From a virus: 64,000 nt of DNA. Where the stretch lies: the IMG/VR virus record IMGVR_UViG_3300023296_000994. The stretch is one strand, 5' to 3'. This document shows, piece by piece, positions 1 through 11,612 of this stretch; the stretch's first letter is position 1; the number at the start of each line of letters is the position of its first letter. The notes beneath the pieces were generated by a model that saw only the letters and a program-made list of their open reading frames with translations, was not told where the DNA came from and made no database searches. The translations under genes were made by a program, and so were the position numbers.

Positions 1-217
<217 letters not shown>

Positions 218-227
218 TTATTTTCTT

Positions 228-596
228 TTAAATGTGCGCGCTGTTGCGGTCTGTCGGAGGCATTGGTGGAGGTGAAGGGTAGTCTGAACTCGATTTGTTT
301 TTCGGTCCTGTTCTGTTTATAATAGACAATAAATCAGATTCTTGGACTGCCATCAATCCGTCTGTATCTTCCATTACTTTCGCAGATAATTTAGTATACA
401 ATACGATATCACCCACAATACACTGCATGTCACCTCTGGCACCAGACAGTAATAATAATCCAGGACCCACAGCAACTACTTCAGCTGTGTTTACACCTTC
501 ATCATTTGTTTCTGGTACTATTACTCCACCGGATGTAATGTCTTGTTTGGTGGGCTTTATTATTACCCGGCCACCAATGGGAAAAAACTGCTTCAT
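228..596 (-). CDS. groES: Co-chaperonin GroES (Cpn10)
   Basis: PIGGRVIIKP...TSGGVIVP...AEVVAVGPG...VGDIVLY...ESDLLSII pattern; Pro-rich C-terminal extension. Confidence 0.92.
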   Translation of the reverse strand: MKQFFPIGGRVIIKPTKQDITSGGVIVPETNDEGVNTAEVVAVGPGLLLLSGARGDMQCIVGDIVLYTKLSAKVMEDTDGLMAVQESDLLSIINRTGPKNKSSSDYPSPPPMPPTDRNSAHI

Positions 597-4556: not shown

Positions 4557-5461
4557 TTAAAATGAAAAGAATTGTGATGCGGTTTCCAAATTTTCATTTG
4601 GTAGTTCCCATCCAAGTGACGTATAGAATTGTTCCAACTTCTTACCGATTTCACTATTCCATATCTGATCATAATCAATGTATGTATTGATTATATTTAG
4701 GATTTCATCGGAATCTTTGTAGCCTGTGAAGGCAACTGATTCCAATCCAAGATTATTATGTAGTAAATATACCCACTTGATTTTATCACCGTCCTTAATC
4801 GGTTCATACTTAGTAGTAAGATTATAATGTGTAAGTAGTTGATTATGGGCTATACATGATTTGACGTGAGCAGGTGTACCTTTGGTAAACGCACCTAATA
4901 ATTGGTCTTTATAAGTGTATTTACTTATACCCTTTACACCTGAATTACGTCCCAATGATGTAATCGGTTGGTTAGATATATCTTTTCTGTATGCCAGAAT
5001 TTTGTTATCCACTGCCACCTTATTTTCAACTTTAAGTATGTCCATCAGTACCTCAGACATAATAGTTTTGAAGTATGGTGGAAATGATGACCTACGTACA
5101 TCTAGCCCCTTTACATCAAGTTTATCACAGTTAACCCCCTTATCATTAATAATCCACTGAGCATATCGTTTCTTTGCAACCCAGAATGCGCTCTTAGCAA
5201 TTGTTTCTTGTTTGATATTAAATCGATGTGATTCAATATTAAACATTCGAGTGGCCATAACATCATATGTCGAGTTAATATGATTTTGAATTTCACCTGC
5301 TACTGATAGAATGGCAGGTATCATTTGATCATCATTGTTTTCATCAATATCTGGATTACGTGTTTTTACAAGCGGCGTTGATTCGTAGAATACTGAGTCA
5401 GTTAAGTGTCCACGTAAATGTTATAATCTACGTGGACTTTTTCAATTTTTTTGATTTTCAT
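4557..5461 (-). CDS. Family-B DNA polymerase, C-terminal subunit (palm motif C + thumb); needs recoding at 5400-5407
   Basis: ATG 5461 gives MKIKKIEKVHVDYNIYVDT*; shifted frame from 5402 gives TDSVFYES...KKRYA...VKGLDVRRSS...IKDGDKIKWVYL; the ORF-track start (5324) omits the catalytic DTDS motif. Confidence 0.85.
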
Positions 5462-6126
5462 AAATAATAATAAATTCACACCCTAGATGGGTTGTTATTT
5501 CGTTTTGTCTTATTTTATCCTTTTCAATTCGATTAGTATGGAATGATTCGTAATATTCAATTACGATATTTTTTTCCTTACTATATCCATCAACCCAGTA
5601 GCCAAGTTCTTTAATATAAAATTCTCCGCCATTTTCGGCGTGTTGGAGGTCTACTATATCAAGTTCTTTTGCTTTGGCCTCAATGATGGAAATTGATGAT
5701 GGATTATAGTTTGGAGAAATACCATGCTTGGATATCAATTCGTCAATTCTCTTTAATCTTAGTTTCCTAACACTTTTGGGATTATCCATCGGATTCTTAC
5801 CAACCGAAGTCCAATACTTATATCGTATTTTCTTCATCGCGGCGGTTGCATTTTTCTTCCAAGTCGGGTGTTTATTTCTAGTTTCTATCATTGAATCAAT
5901 ACTATCCTTGCTATGTCGTTTTCCTTTAAATGGATTTTTATCACCACGAACATCAGCGTGATTCTTACTTAGACTTTCTTTATGTTTATCACTAAATAAT
6001 TTACCTGTCTTAGAACAACTCAAACATTTCTTATTTTCAGCTATAGCTTTTTCATGAAACCATTTAGTTTTAATTGTTATTTCGATGCCGCAAGTGGGAC
6101 AATTTCGTACATATTTTCATCATCAT
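5442..6126 (-). mobile_element. Free-standing homing endonuclease (Zn finger + NUMOD3-like repeats + Vsr-like/PD-(D/E)xK domain) inside the polB locus
   Basis: CPTC..CLSC (frame open from 6116), HKESLSKNH, KNPFKGKRHS, GYWVDGY...IVIEYYESFH; RBS GGAG and ATGs at 6120-6126 are one base out of frame. Confidence 0.75.
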
Positions 6127-6172
6127 ATCTCCTATAATAAGTATATGATTATTCAACTTTCTGTATGGAGTA

Positions 6173-8116
6173 CTAGACAACAATATCATCATCTTCCGTT
6201 AATTCACCAACTTGCTTCTTACTACCATCCATTAACGTAACAAATTCATTTACACCAAATATTAATTCTTTGCCATTTTCTAGTGTGAGTTTATGTGGAT
6301 TTATGTGTTCATTGTAGTATGCGTTGGCAATCTTTTCCGTAGTTTTAATAATGGTTTGACCACACTCTGTAACAGCTGCAGCATTATCAAGGTCATAAAA
6401 TCTGAACGTGGCAAGCCCAAGACAGCCATATAAACTATTAAGCATGATTTTTTGGGTATGCTGCCTTCTATCGTAGAATTTATACAAATCGGTGGCTCCG
6501 GCCTTACCGTGTGATTTCATTAACTTTGTATATTCTGTTCGTTTTTTAAACCAAACATCTAAGATTTCTGCAATGACACCAACTTTATCCTGTCTATACA
6601 ATACACCATTGGATGATACCGAATAGTTAGATTCTGATAATAGCTCTTGGAATTTAGCTTTGTTAATAGCAGGATAATAGTCGCCGTGACTATCTTCAAT
6701 AATGTATTCATCTATTTCATCGGATATATATCGTTCCGTAGTGAAATTATGAACCTTGCCCATCTTAGTTTCTGGACTAATATTTAGGCTCATAATAATA
6801 CTTGGATACAATGATGTTAAGTCCAAGTCATATACCCATTTATATAATCCGGTAATAGGTTCCTTTACATATGCTCCTACAAAATCAAGTGCCACCTTAT
6901 AATCAGTACCAGCTTCTTTTTCTAGTGGCTTTGATAATGTAAATGTTGATCCATCATATGAATCATACGATACAATAATATAGCTGGATGTAGATTTACT
7001 TATTTTTAATCGGCCTGTTCCAGGTACGTTTGTCAGTATGTTAGATTCCATATTAAGCTTCGTGGTTCCAACGGGATGCTTTCTACTTAATACTAATGAC
7101 AAACGGGGTGGTGAATTTGTTGCAATTCTATTATTCCGTCTAAGGAATGTTAATATAGCACCTTCCAGCCATTTAGATGAAAAAAGAAAATCTTCATATT
7201 GAGTGTGACCGGCATGAGTAATTGAACGAGCAAGGTCAATGAATTGTAGCTTACGGTCCATATCTACCACAAGTTCAACGTCTACCAAGTTATATTCTAC
7301 AAACGTTTCAATGTCATCTCTGAATAGTTCATCTAGGCTTCCAACGTATTCTATTTTACCCCTACCCAATACTTCCTTTGCAATAGTATCCAATCGATAA
7401 TTTGCTAGTTCACTATATGTGAAGTTTTTATATAGAGCAAGATAATCAAGGGATGATACACCTGCTATTAAATAACGGCCGCGTCTTTCATTCCAATCAA
7501 CTATACCAATCGGTGACAACCTATTAGCAACACCTTCCGAAAATACAGTCTTGATTCTGTTATAGAGATATGTAATATCAAAATAATCTATGTTCCACCC
7601 AGTTATAATGGTGGGATTTATTTGTTCCCATTTATTAAGGAATGCAAGTAGTAAGCTATCTTCATCTGGAAAAGATTGTACAATGGCTTTCTTAATCTTC
7701 TTATCTATTGATAAATCTGATATCACATATACATAATAATCATCTGTTGTAGAATCATGTAGCGCTATTGATGTGATTGCATTATCAGCATCAGTTAAGT
7801 CAGGTAACCCCGTTACCATTTCAACTTCAATATCAAACGTAACTACAGTATGGCCGGTGGAAATTTCATCACTGTCACCATACGTATCAATTAAGAAACG
7901 AATGATTGGATTTATATCGCTTTCGTGTAATTTACTAGTGGTATATTTATCCCATTCTCCAATTTTCCTTAATTTCTCCCCATAGATAGATTCAAATGCT
8001 CCATTAGCATCCGGTACATATGCATACTTATGGTATTTTTCTTGCTTGTAACCAAGCTCGTCATCCCAATAATGTATAGTATTGGTCTTCCTATCAAAGT
8101 GCACATTCTGATACAT
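6173..8116 (-). CDS. Family-B DNA polymerase, N-terminal subunit (exonuclease, motifs A and B)
   Basis: FDIEV (ExoI), GWNIDYFD (ExoII), YNLVD (ExoIII), DLTSLYPSII (motif A), KIMLNSLYG (motif B); ends before motif C with an intein-like tail. Confidence 0.95.
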   Translation of the reverse strand: MYQNVHFDRKTNTIHYWDDELGYKQEKYHKYAYVPDANGAFESIYGEKLRKIGEWDKYTTSKLHESDINPIIRFLIDTYGDSDEISTGHTVVTFDIEVEMVTGLPDLTDADNAITSIALHDSTTDDYYVYVISDLSIDKKIKKAIVQSFPDEDSLLLAFLNKWEQINPTIITGWNIDYFDITYLYNRIKTVFSEGVANRLSPIGIVDWNERRGRYLIAGVSSLDYLALYKNFTYSELANYRLDTIAKEVLGRGKIEYVGSLDELFRDDIETFVEYNLVDVELVVDMDRKLQFIDLARSITHAGHTQYEDFLFSSKWLEGAILTFLRRNNRIATNSPPRLSLVLSRKHPVGTTKLNMESNILTNVPGTGRLKISKSTSSYIIVSYDSYDGSTFTLSKPLEKEAGTDYKVALDFVGAYVKEPITGLYKWVYDLDLTSLYPSIIMSLNISPETKMGKVHNFTTERYISDEIDEYIIEDSHGDYYPAINKAKFQELLSESNYSVSSNGVLYRQDKVGVIAEILDVWFKKRTEYTKLMKSHGKAGATDLYKFYDRRQHTQKIMLNSLYGCLGLATFRFYDLDNAAAVTECGQTIIKTTEKIANAYYNEHINPHKLTLENGKELIFGVNEFVTLMDGSKKQVGELTEDDDIVV

Positions 8117-9543: not shown

Positions 9544-9574
9544 CAATATACACATTTTAATTGACATTACCAAA
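9544..9574 (-). promoter_or_regulatory. Putative promoter TTTGG-N19-TATATTG upstream of glycosyltransferase/polB
   Basis: Exact motif and spacing; only a few nt from the ATG. Confidence 0.65.
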
Positions 9575-10358
9575 AATTTAACGAACTTTTTTCATACGAT
9601 GTATAATGGTGGTGTATTTCATTCATAAACACATCACTATTTTTAGGATAATCCTTTTCAGGATGTTTAAGTAATTGCTTAAGATTCTTTTTGGACCGGG
9701 GATTACCTATTAACTGAATATATCTATGCTTGGACGCTTCTATACGTCTCCAAAATTCAGTTATATTTTGCTTACCAATTTCGCGTCTCAGATGGTCCAC
9801 GTTACTAGATCCCCACTTAGAAAATACAGTTCTACTGTGAATCCACTTATACGGATTTTTTTGTAGTGACAATTCATAATTGGGCATTAATGCCAAATCT
9901 GTATTGGTTCCCTGGTATATCCAATTTGTAGCCTGATATATCCTACCTAAATGAGCTTGGCTGGCATCCGCATAGGATATCAGCGCTTTAATATCAGGGT
10001 CATTTTCCTTAATCCACTTGAATGTTTTACCAAGTGCATATGATTCTATATTTGACCCGTATCCATCATGTATATACAGTCGGGTCAATTCCAACACAGA
10101 ATCTATCGCCAGTGTGTCTGAGACGCTCGCTGCCGCTGATCGACCAACAGGATTACCGTAGATAGCGCAGCCAATTAATACATCGTCTCCGAACGTATCA
10201 GAGCTACTATCGACGTAATATATACCAATAGCGTACTTACATGAAGACCATGAATGTGTGTAATGATATTTTACAATCATTTTTTTGGCTACCACAGCAT
10301 TTATTTTTTTAATAAACACTTTTGATGTATCACAGTAATGTTTTCCTTCTTCTTTCAT
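9567..10358 (-). CDS. Mom-like GNAT DNA-modification protein, paralog 1
   Basis: IVKYHY, VLELTRL, ISYAD....HLGRIYQATNWIYQG, KHRY. Confidence 0.75.
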   Translation of the reverse strand: MKEEGKHYCDTSKVFIKKINAVVAKKMIVKYHYTHSWSSCKYAIGIYYVDSSSDTFGDDVLIGCAIYGNPVGRSAAASVSDTLAIDSVLELTRLYIHDGYGSNIESYALGKTFKWIKENDPDIKALISYADASQAHLGRIYQATNWIYQGTNTDLALMPNYELSLQKNPYKWIHSRTVFSKWGSSNVDHLRREIGKQNITEFWRRIEASKHRYIQLIGNPRSKKNLKQLLKHPEKDYPKNSDVFMNEIHHHYTSYEKSSLNFW

Positions 10359-10945
10359 GATATATCGTATGTAAATATGTGCTTTGGTTTTGTATCAATT
10401 AACACAACACCTTCATCTTTTTCTTTATATCTTCTATTGATTTCGACGCCATACGGTCTATCTAACATTGACAATGTACGAACATGAAATTTCTTTCCGT
10501 CTACCAGTAATGATTTGCCAGTAGAAGTCAATCCCAAATATTTGAAATTTGATGCTCTATAAATTACACCTGTGTGGCCTTGTTCGCCGTCTGCATATGA
10601 TATGACAAATTTCCAATTTGAATTTTTCTTTAACCACTTTAACGTCCGACTTACAAAAAATGATTCGGCGTTTTTAGGAGTGTCATCTATACAGCATAAC
10701 CTACGTAGTTCTAAAACTGCCATCGGATTATCTGGATAATATTTTGCTCCTGCTGCTGCACCAGCCGGCCTAGTGTAAACACAGACACCGACAATTTCGG
10801 GAATATTAAATTTTCCAGGGCGTAGTAAGCAGAACGTATGTTTGTGTTGAATATTAACGTAATCGGAATAATGCCAACACCTCATAAATGTACGAATCGA
10901 TTTATTAAACGAAGTGTGTTCTACCCAATATGATTGTAATGCCAT
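10355..10945 (-). CDS. Mom-like GNAT DNA-modification protein, paralog 2
   Basis: WHYS, VLELRRLC, NAESFFV, ISYADGEQGHTGVIYRASNFKYLG. Confidence 0.75.
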   Translation of the reverse strand: MALQSYWVEHTSFNKSIRTFMRCWHYSDYVNIQHKHTFCLLRPGKFNIPEIVGVCVYTRPAGAAAGAKYYPDNPMAVLELRRLCCIDDTPKNAESFFVSRTLKWLKKNSNWKFVISYADGEQGHTGVIYRASNFKYLGLTSTGKSLLVDGKKFHVRTLSMLDRPYGVEINRRYKEKDEGVVLIDTKPKHIFTYDIS

Positions 10946-10946
10946 T

Positions 10947-11612
10947 TTAAAAAAACTTGTTTATATACGATTCACGTACAATATTATCTCCGGCATCATA
11001 TCTACTATTTTGCCCCTTTGGATACGGTAACACATCATATTTTTCCATTAATTCTTTTCTTAATTTCTTTTTTTGATGCTTATTTCCCGTCACCTGAAAG
11101 TATCTATGTTTGCCTTCTTGTTCTTTGAATGTAATTGTATATCCCATACCAATCAGCGCGGGTATAGATGATGTACCGTATCTGGCAAATATTGTCCTAC
11201 GGTGAGTTTCTTCACCATTGACATATATTATCTTTTCTTTTGATGACATACCGGTATACATCCAATTAGTTGCTTGGTATATATATCCGTGATGACCCCA
11301 ATTCTGATCAGCATACGATACAACATGCGGGTCTTTAATTAGATTCAGGCATCCGGCTAAAAAGAACGAGGTAATGTTTTTTTGATTTAATTCGTTTGTA
11401 ACCAGCCTACTTAATTCGTATGGTGAATCTTCTAAATCAAATCTAGCGATGGCTGGAGAGAAAACACAAACTCCTTCAATGTGATTATTTATAAAAAGAC
11501 CGAAAGATTTCGATATAGTTGGCATTCTTTTTAGATAATGTTTATCCAAAAGCCAATCAGTACATACCGATTGTTTTATGCTAACTATATTAACGTTCTT
11601 AGTATCTATCAT
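10947..11612 (-). CDS. Mom-like GNAT DNA-modification protein, paralog 3
   Basis: KHYLKRMP, YELSRL, VSYADQNWGHHGYIYQATNWMYTG, KHRY, LPYPKG. Confidence 0.8.
   Translation of the reverse strand: MIDTKNVNIVSIKQSVCTDWLLDKHYLKRMPTISKSFGLFINNHIEGVCVFSPAIARFDLEDSPYELSRLVTNELNQKNITSFFLAGCLNLIKDPHVVSYADQNWGHHGYIYQATNWMYTGMSSKEKIIYVNGEETHRRTIFARYGTSSIPALIGMGYTITFKEQEGKHRYFQVTGNKHQKKKLRKELMEKYDVLPYPKGQNSRYDAGDNIVRESYINKFF

Follow-up and report, generated by a model that had tools for sequence, protein, structure and literature searches.

The locus described here raises the question of how a phage obtains a DNA polymerase from a gene that is divided by an endonuclease gene and then, a few codons into its second part, broken again by an in-frame stop and a change of reading frame within a catalytic motif. 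The original prediction was that the two halves of this polymerase (PolB) carry non-splicing remnants of an intein, which reassemble a two-chain enzyme as a charge-complementary clasp. Our analysis points to a mobile cassette that splits the gene, to a ribosomal hop of +5 nt that completes the C-chain, and to half of a Hint domain that serves as the clasp; on the sequence comparisons set out below, we give this reading a probability of roughly 0.55.

Ribosomal bypassing has been known for decades from essentially one example in bacterial viruses, gene 60 of phage T4 and its homologues, a single topoisomerase gene; shorter counterparts, "long presumed" to exist, have been expected and not found (reviews, e.g. 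PMC5009743). The gap in PolB would, if the proposal is true, be the second natural case of a hop of the T4 gene 60 type.

Layout of the split polymerase gene

The window, by which we mean the whole stretch of 64,000 nucleotides that was analysed, contains no tRNA genes. The gene belongs to an uncultured aquatic T4-like phage. It has no close match among the isolate phages in GenBank, the best being Microcystis phage Mel-JY01 at 42% identity, whose polymerase is unsplit at the match to the N-subunit. The features of the locus, in order of transcription, are as follows.

6173..8116, minus strand: PolB N-subunit gene, 647 aa plus stop, with the exonuclease domain and motifs A and B; its end precedes motif C
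6176..6298, minus strand: C-terminal tail of the N-subunit, 41 aa, PHKLTLENGKE...DDDIVV, acidic
6024..6172, minus strand: spacer with the 5' region of the endonuclease, with AGGAG at 6133-6129 and ATGATGATG from 6126
5442..6023, minus strand: free-standing homing-endonuclease gene, 193 aa, TTG start, with a weak NUMOD3 match and a putative Vsr / I-Bth0305I-like nuclease domain
5405..5461, minus strand: first 19 codons of the C-chain; MKIKKIEKVH is the IntC-like basic head and VDYNIYVDT the native PolB strand, ending at the Thr of DTDS
5408..5437, minus strand: RNA hairpin with a 12-bp stem and a loop of 6 nt; the 3' arm finishes with the Asp codon that adjoins the take-off codon
5407-5405, minus strand: putative take-off codon ACT
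5400..5404, minus strand: coding gap TAACT, made up of the in-frame stop TAA (5404-5402) and CT
5402-5400, minus strand: putative landing triplet ACT
4557..5399, minus strand: remaining PolB C-chain, 280 codons plus stop, from DSVFYES... onward, with the KKRY motif and thumb

The order of the motifs (exonuclease, A, B, C, KKRY) and the Pfam and PHROG matches are those of a Family B DNA polymerase of the T4 gp43 type, with motif C complete only when 5 nt are skipped. The N-subunit matches Pfam DNA_pol_B_exo1 and DNA_pol_B and positions 15-569 of PHROG 262; its PolB profile matches end at about residue 608, so that the last ~40 aa are not polymerase. The end of this subunit had been placed correctly, since the open reading frame 8116..6173 finishes exactly there. 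Beyond its stop the frame does continue as YSIQKVE*, as had been read, although the interpretation of this peptide as a relic of the same strand finds no support.

The Vsr-like gene that had been noted between the halves is the 193-aa reading frame 6023..5442. Its C-terminal domain, in a model with pLDDT 60-79, resembles Vsr (1cw0, Z 7.3) and I-Bth0305I (3r3p, Z 7.0, 21% identity) among many PD-(D/E)xK folds, and sequence searches of Pfam, NCBIfam, PHROG and the PDB gave no family name. The protein ends in ..YENQKN*, and its last codons overlap the ATG at 5461.

A five-nucleotide gap within motif C

The ATG at 5461 opens MKIKKIEKVHVDYNIYVDT, a reading frame that ends at TAA (5404..5402) after 19 codons. 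The PolB frame resumes 5 nt past, in a different frame (DSVFY...), with TAACT parting the Thr and Asp codons of the YxDTDS motif, which uninterrupted relatives read through continuously as ..DYNIYVDTDSVFY.. The sequence that had been given as the start of the C-subunit is thus as quoted, but the reading frame it opens is not that subunit. With the C-chain interrupted after 19 codons by a stop and a change of frame, a clasp that brings two chains together could not yield a working polymerase unless recoding also took place.

Simpler routes across the gap were considered and rejected. There is no slippery site for -1 or +2 frameshifting, the products of which (YVDTLTDS or YVDTTDS) would break the motif, and no homopolymer for transcriptional slippage. 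The resumed frame (5399..4557) has no start codon before Met26 (5324), and a start there would delete DTDS, yet the 25 preceding codons are under selection.

The same 5-nt break is found in at least 14 distinct sequence variants from at least four PolB lineages in IMG/VR, JGI and ENA assemblies, all with the same layout of N-subunit tail, MKIK head, hairpin of 10-13 bp that finishes directly ahead of the Thr codon, and gap of a stop plus two bases. The gap reads T[AG]A plus 2 nt in 14/14 variants, with TAA or TGA, and never TAG, directly after the take-off codon. In 11 of the 14 the landing triplet has the form ACN, with the third base varying freely (T, A, G, C), although these variants are phylogenetically related and the ACN counts are not independent. 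The remaining 3/14 have ATG or ATT as the landing triplet; tRNA-Thr might still pair with AUG or AUU by means of a G.U at the middle position. A scan for gaps of 8 nt recovered no PolB, given which the gap length is specific, and a scan for the MKI head without a gap gave only an unsplit PolB with a chance ATGAAAA.

The nine codons before the gap have a pN/pS of 0.10 and the 25 start-less codons from the gap to Met26 one of 0.24; by these ratios both flanks of the gap are under purifying selection and hence translated. Because the break recurs in so many variants, we conclude that it is neither chance nor an assembly error. A stop and frame change within the catalytic motif, together with an endonuclease that also looks frameshifted, could be taken to mean that the polymerase gene is dead, as a pseudogene or through misassembly, and that another enzyme replicates the phage. 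This is very unlikely indeed, given that a break of the identical type occurs in independent assemblies, that both flanks are under purifying selection, that the hairpin covaries and that ~930 codons are otherwise undamaged.

The hairpin that precedes the take-off codon is composed of the head codons and the native ..IYVD codons. Across eight variants 96/96 cells are paired (100%), with compensatory changes in five pairs, whereas slid controls are 18-46% paired. Its z-score is -5.1, and its folding energy is -16 to -21.5 kcal/mol in split variants compared with -0.8 to -6.1 kcal/mol in 36 unsplit relatives. The hairpin is missing from all 36 of these uninterrupted relatives and from true IntC genes; other lineages have a hairpin at the same position with a different sequence.

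The cassette, located ~9 codons upstream of motif C, would comprise five parts: the tail, the Vsr/I-Bth0305I-like endonuclease, a new start with the MKIK head, the hairpin and the five extra bases. We propose that initiation at 5461 is followed by translation of 19 codons and a pause in which ACT, with its peptidyl-tRNA-Thr, occupies the P site and TAA the A site. This tRNA would then unpair, the mRNA slide by 5 nt, and the tRNA re-pair on the ACT that overlaps the stop, after which decoding would restart at GAC to give ..YVDTDSVFY.., identical to unsplit relatives; the predicted junction peptide of the C-chain made in this way is ..NIYVDTDSVFYESTPLVK. Re-formation of the hairpin at the mRNA exit may favour forward sliding, and the Lys-rich nascent head could also contribute. 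Against the proposal, the non-programmed stop-hops known from E. coli have a low efficiency, whereas good yield is what a replicative polymerase needs. We put at even odds the more specific claim that this would be a natural, conserved 5-nt programmed bypass inside DTDS, with an exit-side hairpin and a matched Thr codon, carried by an endonuclease cassette with an allele-protecting gap and a recycled split-intein clasp, and that it would be the first short-distance counterpart of gene 60, of independent origin.

The alternative that bears most directly on the gap is termination followed by reinitiation, in which a peptide of 19-23 aa would be released at the stop and translation would restart within the gap, with the hairpin blocking backward sliding of the post-termination ribosome. 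The polymerase would then consist of three chains, namely the N-subunit, a mini-peptide that contributes the strand together with the first Asp of DTD, and a C-fragment beginning (M)(T)DS.... Such a restart is possible in about half of the variants. L167 (TAATG) and L174 (TGATG) have an ATG directly before the Asp codon, in what are classic stop-start overlaps, and several TGA variants (L024, L093, L095 and L152) create GTG, ATG or TTG one codon earlier; both observations speak against a hop, and some variants resemble transitions to reinitiation. A Family B polymerase from Pfu that was split by accidental termination-reinitiation remained active (PMC3061061). The window and four other TAA variants, however, offer only TTA, GTA or CTA plus ACN before the Asp codon, and their resumed frame has no start-like codon after the last upstream stop. 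In 3/8 TGA variants a C stands at the position needed to complete NTG, so that there is no selection for a start, and no Shine-Dalgarno sequence lies ahead of the gap. The C-fragment would, moreover, be without the universally conserved head, and the catalytic DTD hairpin would be divided between two chains. We therefore regard reinitiation as rather unlikely. Should the candidate bypass prove genuine, it would offer a compact and testable system for ribosome sliding, with a minimal gap, an RNA element that is simple and covaries strongly, and over 12 natural variants.

Intein origin of the tail and head

A profile built from 13 tails aligns with positions 56-95 of the 98 in bona fide split-intein N (IntN) fragments (hhalign probability 95.2%, E 2.5e-8), the reference fragments being those that flank homologous endonucleases, taken from related endonuclease loci. 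Structure prediction for the tail by itself gives an ordered unit of four strands (pLDDT 76). In an exhaustive comparison of this model with 48,161 chains, ranks 1-25 are all inteins or Hint domains (VIA; Z 3.0-5.8, rmsd 1.7-2.6 Å, 44-47 aa aligned), with the tail aligned to the N2-lobe region of inteins, such as residues 49-96 of Npu DnaE IntN, which is also the best match by Foldseek (prob 0.97, TMq 0.74, E 0.59). A sequence-only comparison of the tail with Pfam gave no intein, nor did PDB profile searches with five tails or with the window tail alone; the PDB profile search with 13 tails recovered none either, the best intein being Pab PolC at E 0.39. The homology is thus visible only by profile-profile comparison with IntN fragments and by structure. 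An hmmsearch with the tail profile against six-frame translations of the window and all loci did not place a further copy of the tail in any other gene.

True IntC fragments begin MKIKSIKPINK.., and the head, MKIK.I.., agrees with this start. An intein-like character had been expected for both segments and is upheld for each; as regards homology, profile comparison and predicted fold bear out the tail as what is left of the N2 lobe of an IntN fragment. The expected opposition of charge is likewise found, with -6 for the tail and +3 for the head in the window and, across 13 lineages, 0 to -6 for tails and +2 to +5 for heads.

The absence of the catalytic intein residues is also as had been described, with residue 1, the block B His and the terminal Asn all lacking in the window. 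PolB sequence runs directly into the tail, with no residue-1 nucleophile (Cys/Ser1) and no block A (N1 lobe). The Thr-x-x-His of block B, TPNH in true IntN, is GVNE in the window and GGNV, YENN or FPNQ in other lineages, the His being kept in L095 only. On the C-terminal side, blocks F and G, the terminal (His-)Asn and a +1 Cys/Ser/Thr are absent, the native VDYNIYVDT beginning after ~10 head residues; a true IntC, that in L129, is 35 aa long and ends in HN before T. Because the N1 lobe with residue 1, the Thr/His of block B, blocks F and G and the terminal Asn are missing, the tail and head are, by their sequences, incapable of splicing. A working split intein that joins both chains by protein trans-splicing would suit an architecture like that of fractured genes, and a real split intein does occur in an Aeromonas phage PolB, but the presence of only the equivalents of IntN 56-95 and ~10 IntC residues contradicts it and makes it next to impossible.

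In real split inteins electrostatic capture is the first step of association. We propose that the two PolB chains likewise associate without splicing, the acidic half-Hint tail pairing with the basic head, and such a role as a docking clasp is plausible because tail and head are kept in all lineages with opposite charges. The tail has conserved key positions (LE[ND]G, N, [DE]L.E.DD) in all split lineages. It evolves faster than the polymerase (pN/pS 0.44 against 0.10-0.32), however, and the halves of split polymerases usually self-associate, both of which would suit a tail and head that are inert baggage, the flanks of a split intein that moved with the endonuclease and were kept as a stop and a start while the halves bind by their own interface. 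This is doubtful in view of the conserved positions and charges, the predicted order of the tail, and the retention of both segments by every lineage, among them five without the endonuclease and a 38%-identical jumbo phage. With such a clasp, the locus would be a candidate case from nature of an intein that has lost catalysis and serves only in assembly; protein engineers might use a module of this kind as a split-intein tag that is small, steered by charge and does not splice.

Known systems and mobility of the cassette

Comparison with the mobA/gene 60 locus of T4 (Bonocora et al. 2011; Manning & Atkins) reveals many parallels. In both, a free-standing homing endonuclease has broken up a gene essential for replication at the point where a metal-binding motif is encoded, and the upstream chain gains a C-terminal and the downstream chain an N-terminal extension. 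The downstream gene also contains, a few codons from its start and ~20-30 nt from the split, a non-coding insert that opens with an in-frame stop. The T4 cassette has such extensions, its endonuclease undergoes swaps and losses, a stop follows its take-off codon, and its take-off and landing codons match (bioRxiv 10.1101/2022.08.31.505936); the PolB locus likewise has matching putative take-off and landing codons, an Asp before the take-off residue, and an endonuclease that is swappable (VSR, GIY-YIG) or lost with the gap kept, in a patchy and recent distribution. The differences are equally clear. The gene is PolB rather than Topo2L, with no sequence homology seen, the gap is 5 nt rather than 50, and the landing codon overlaps the stop. 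The PolB gap has no take-off stem-loop or mini-SD and instead a conserved hairpin 5' of the take-off codon, whereas in gene 60 homologues a hairpin in that position is not the best-conserved element (bioRxiv 10.1101/2022.08.31.505936). The nascent peptide is only 19-27 aa long here, the extensions are recognisable intein remnants, and the putative PolB bypass is proposed from sequence comparison.

In E. coli, the stop-hops described by Weiss et al. 1987 involve a peptidyl-tRNA that leaves a stop-flanked codon and re-pairs at a matching codon +5 or +6. These are synthetic or incidental and inefficient, whereas the PolB site is conserved, in an essential gene, and has a dedicated RNA structure.

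Fractured genes of marine phages (Dassa et al. 2009, PMC2677866), such as gp41-1, share with this locus the order of host N part with IntN end, endonuclease, and IntC start with host C part, as well as the overlap of the endonuclease 3' end with the downstream start; the predicted nuclease fold would be shared as well. In contrast to these genes, what the PolB locus retains of the intein is no more than the N2 lobe and ~10 residues from the start of IntC, so that splicing is impossible; the insertion lies in a variable loop, and the host gene has an extra 5-nt gap. PolB1 of Aes123, from Aeromonas T4-like phages, has a cysteine-less split intein between DTD and S (PMC11923092; PDB 9HTH). It too is a T4-like phage PolB in two chains with Hint-derived ends and the motif C region as target; its intein, however, is complete, splices and lies inside DTDS, whereas the Hint pieces described here are truncated and lie 9 codons upstream, DTDS carrying the 5-nt gap. 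The gp43 of Aeromonas phages 44RR and 25 is split into two cistrons that form an active complex (Petrov, Karam et al., in PMC2677866), with a homing endonuclease between the cistrons in phage 25 (PMC2677866); neither intein-like extensions nor a recoding site have been reported for these phages.

The gap probably shields cassette-bearing genomes from cutting by the endonuclease, much as the 50-nt gap of T4 protects against MobA. Its site in motif C we take to be the most conserved DNA of the polymerase and a known homing site of inteins. If so, the most conserved stretch of an essential gene could be open to colonisation by selfish endonucleases. Gene callers will label such polymerases as broken, and recognition of the pattern corrects their annotation in a widespread group of aquatic T4-like phages.

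The endonuclease in the window is probably decaying; three-frame translation and comparison with homologues place the frame that encodes its Zn-ribbon (CPTC..CLSC) one base off from the ATGs in the spacer. Homologues in loci L113, L115, L129, L131 and L133 sit in true split inteins. The endonuclease has been lost in five lineages, with a spacer of 18-110 nt and the tail and head retained, and in the 38%-identical jumbo phage the PolB halves are 4.4 kb apart, again with tail and head retained. Among near-identical polymerases the distribution of the cassette is patchy, the endonuclease often being missing. The PolB tree indicates at least six gains or losses of the cassette, with a split and a whole gene as sisters at a distance of 0.09. 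Outside the cassette nucleotide identity is ~80-97%, and it falls in the immediate cassette flanks in one of the three pairs compared (L074/L075).

Organisation of the split polymerase gene

PolB, on the minus strand of the window, is split into two parts by an endonuclease gene, and its C part is interrupted in motif C (YxDTDS). The region has the following features:

Features of the split PolB region (ORF boundaries from ORF calls)
8116..6173, minus: PolB N-subunit ORF, 647 aa
6023..5442, minus: 193-aa ORF between the PolB halves
5437..5408, minus: 12-bp RNA hairpin, directly 5' of the Thr codon of motif C
5404..5400, minus: five extra bases, TAACT, between the Thr and Asp codons of YxDTDS

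Pfam and PHROG profile matches place the end of the polymerase part of the N-subunit at about residue 608, and because polymerase coverage ends there the last ∼40 residues (the tail) are foreign. The sequence of this end, as quoted in the original prediction, is confirmed in ORF 8116..6173. The final codons of the 193-aa ORF overlap an ATG at 5461, the start of MKIKKIEKVHVDYNIYVDT; the ORF opened there, whose MKIK start we term the head, is terminated by TAA at 5404..5402. What is left of the polymerase, from DSVFYES... as far as its stop at 4557, is in another frame, which has no start codon upstream of Met26, and in unsplit relatives the sequence runs continuously as ..DYNIYVDTDSVFY.. across motif C. 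Since the head ORF stops, PolB resumes in a new frame and the relatives are uninterrupted, exactly five bases are extra in the window. The C-subunit first described matches the head ORF as far as its stop; the break itself, TAA and then a frame change, had gone unmentioned.

The five-base gap and synthesis of the C-chain

At least 14 distinct sequence variants of gap-bearing PolB came from pattern searches of IMG/VR and of JGI/ENA metagenome contigs and from loci retrieved through protein similarity. They belong to several polymerase lineages whose C parts are only 38–62% identical to that of the window. In every variant the N-subunit carries a similar tail, a short ORF begins MKI(K/I/N).., and the five-base insertion occupies the same site. 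This insert consists without exception of T[AG]A and two further bases, never beginning with TAG, and the codon preceding the stop is always ACN. In 11 variants the last A of the stop and the two bases after it spell ACN (Thr), the third base being any of T, A, G and C; two variants have ATG here and one has ATT. A scan for polymerases with an 8-nt insert found none.

Across eight variants, pN/pS is 0.10 for the 9 codons before the gap, 0.24 for the 25 codons after it, which lie ahead of any possible start, and 0.32 for the rest of the C part. Because selection acts on either side of the gap, both frames appear to be read as protein, and the frame change must therefore fall within these few bases. 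We conclude from these sequence comparisons that the gap is a conserved feature rather than damage.

Native ..(V/I)Y(V/T)D codons form the 3' arm of the hairpin, and head codons form the 5' arm. Pairing is standard in 96 of 96 pair cells over eight variants, with both sides changed in five pairs, and falls to only 18–46% when the partner is slid by 1–3 columns as a control. Folding energies are −16 to −21.5 kcal/mol at gap-bearing loci compared with −0.8 to −6.1 kcal/mol in 36 unsplit relatives, and the window hairpin has a z of −5.1 against shuffles. Other lineages have hairpins of 10–13 bp, in the same register and of different sequence; no equivalent is seen in genes for true split-intein C fragments (IntC).

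The C-chain is most likely made by a +5 ribosomal hop over the gap (probability roughly 0.6). Judged from the variants, a five-base hop by tRNA-Thr is the single event that would restore DTDS in all of them. Peptidyl-tRNA-Thr would leave its ACN codon while the stop occupies the A site, and would re-pair five bases downstream at the A[C/U]N triplet (ACT to ACT in the window); in the hop-joined C-chain the peptide VHVDYNIYVDTDSVFYESTPLVK would span the gap. At take-off the 3' arm of the hairpin would lie inside the ribosome and the 5' arm would be newly emerged, and re-folding could then favour forward sliding.

The main rival, termination followed by reinitiation at the gap, seems unlikely. 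Two variants (L167, TAATG; L174, TGATG) do place ATG directly before the Asp codon, but neither the window nor four other TAA variants have a start-like codon there; NTG codons arise in several TGA variants, but with no bias toward them. There is no Shine-Dalgarno sequence, and although such a split leaves an engineered Pfu polymerase active (PMC3061061), the resulting fragment would be without the conserved head. L167 and L174, both from IMG/VR, could represent natural intermediates on the way from a hop to stop-start reinitiation.

Intein origin and possible docking role of the tail and head

Sequence searches of Pfam and the PDB with the tail returned no inteins. With the endonuclease as bait, homologues were retrieved from IMG/VR. 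Several of these sit in genuine fractured genes, where a 98-aa split-intein N fragment (IntN; C-I-A-G-D-S ... T-P-N-H ... DLTEDMELKTL*) closes the upstream protein and the downstream protein starts MKIKSIKPINK...HN|T. Complete split inteins (Cys1, TPNH, HN|T) at five such loci (L113, L115, L129, L131 and L133), in a host protein (..TEK|C.. / ..|TDGQALAISW..), provided the IntN and IntC used for comparison. At other IMG/VR loci (L124, L127 and L135–L137), a terminase-large-subunit-like gene is split by homologues of this endonuclease; the split intein is cut atypically there, the IntN being short at ∼30 aa (CLWG[DE]S..) and the IntC long.

A profile of 13 tails matches positions 56–95 of the 98-aa IntN with 95.2% probability (hhalign). 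Folded alone, the tail is predicted to form a four-strand unit (pLDDT 76). Exhaustive structural comparison of this model with 48,161 PDB chains gave only 35 chains at Z ≥2, and ranks 1–25 are all inteins or Hint domains (the intein fold), aligned with rmsd 1.7–2.6 Å over 44–47 residues; they include Npu DnaE IntN residues 49–96, and NrdJ-1 and gp41-1 residues 41–86, the gp41-1 IntN end being checked against PDB 6qaz. Foldseek likewise ranks the Npu DnaE split intein first, but with a query of this length its E-values do not reach significance. Profile and predicted structure thus identify the tail as the N2 lobe of an IntN, and sequence comparison identifies the head as the first ∼10 residues of an IntC. 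The original prediction had called both segments intein-like; for the tail, the IntN profile match and the Hint-only leading structures bear this out. It was also right that the splicing residues are missing: splicing is excluded by the lack of the N1 lobe with its residue 1, of Thr/His in block B, and of blocks F/G.

A docking role for these segments, originally proposed as a clasp, is probable. Every lineage has both tail and head, among them five that have lost the endonuclease, in which the genes are only 18–110 nt apart. An uncultured jumbo phage (LR756508) also has a similar tail on its N-subunit and a C-subunit starting MKTKKIKNI.., with 4.4 kb between the genes. Net charge is 0 to −6 for tails and +2 to +5 for heads; in real split inteins the first, electrostatic contact is that of the N2 lobe with IntC (PMC11923092). 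The alternative is that both stubs are tolerated baggage; the tail has a pN/pS of 0.44, constrained, yet less so than the enzyme.

In the jumbo phage (484 kb, LR756508.1) unrelated genes lie between the PolB halves (L106 3001-6054 and L107 484-2349) and the 5-nt gap is absent. Two full inteins interrupt its PolB: the N-subunit has one in motif B, and the C-subunit has the other exactly between D and T of DTDS (..YCVYTD|S...VVHN|TDSVFY).

Cassette mobility and comparison with T4 gene 60

At least six gains or losses are needed to explain where the 14 gap-bearing genes fall on a maximum-likelihood tree of 62 C parts, in which one split and one whole gene are sisters at a distance of 0.09. Nucleotide identity outside the cassette is roughly 80–97% in three split/whole pairs. 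In one comparison (L074/L075) it is lower across the ∼20 nt that precede the tail and the ∼60 nt that follow the gap, the pattern that co-conversion would leave; in another (L024/L079) it is 98% over the first 60 nt past the gap. By its distribution, the split-and-gap element is a mobile cassette.

The content between tail and head varies, comprising the window type of endonuclease, a 275-aa Zn-finger form that shares its nuclease domain, a GIY-YIG enzyme, ORFs of 157 and 334 aa, or no endonuclease at all. The 5' region of the window endonuclease (6024-6133, minus) has a good AGGAG and a ATGATGATG start, but its conserved Zn-ribbon (RNCPTCG..CLSC), which follows an AAAA run, lies in the +1 frame; homologues read M..KKWKRNCP.C in a single frame. 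That the Zn-ribbon is one base out of frame with the ATGs suggests that the gene is decaying; otherwise a +1 slip would be needed.

The proposed PolB hop resembles that of T4 gene 60 in having a take-off codon followed by a stop, a matching landing codon, Asp ahead of the take-off residue, a positively charged nascent peptide and mRNA pairing behind the ribosome. The cassette also shares with the MobA/gene 60 element its mobility and the swapping or loss of its endonuclease. In MobA/gene 60 the gap shields the host allele from the endonuclease (bioRxiv 10.1101/2022.08.31.505936), and T4-like polymerases have a proven homing target in their DTDS DNA, as in the Aes123 split intein at DTD|S (PMC11923092). 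Because DTDS is a homing site, both in Aes123 and for the jumbo phage intein (D|TDS), it is reasonable to infer that the 5-nt gap may confer immunity to the endonuclease.

We regard the PolB cassette as a minimal and independent analogue of that of gene 60, made from split-intein debris. A survey of gene 60 placed all homologues in the topoisomerase gene, the cassette there 'remains unique' (bioRxiv 10.1101/2022.08.31.505936), and a 2016 recoding review noted that shorter counterparts have long been presumed to exist (PMC5009743). The literature searched contained no report of a ribosomal hop in a polymerase.

Elsewhere in the window, three tandem paralogous ORFs (263, 196 and 221 aa; 9567-11612, minus) adjoin a 379-aa ORF; the polymerase is on one side of them and a class II ribonucleotide-reductase-like gene on the other. 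At 2-596 (minus), a GroES-like gene and the first part of a GroEL-like one adjoin the clamp-loader genes, an unusual cargo in a T4-like replication module.
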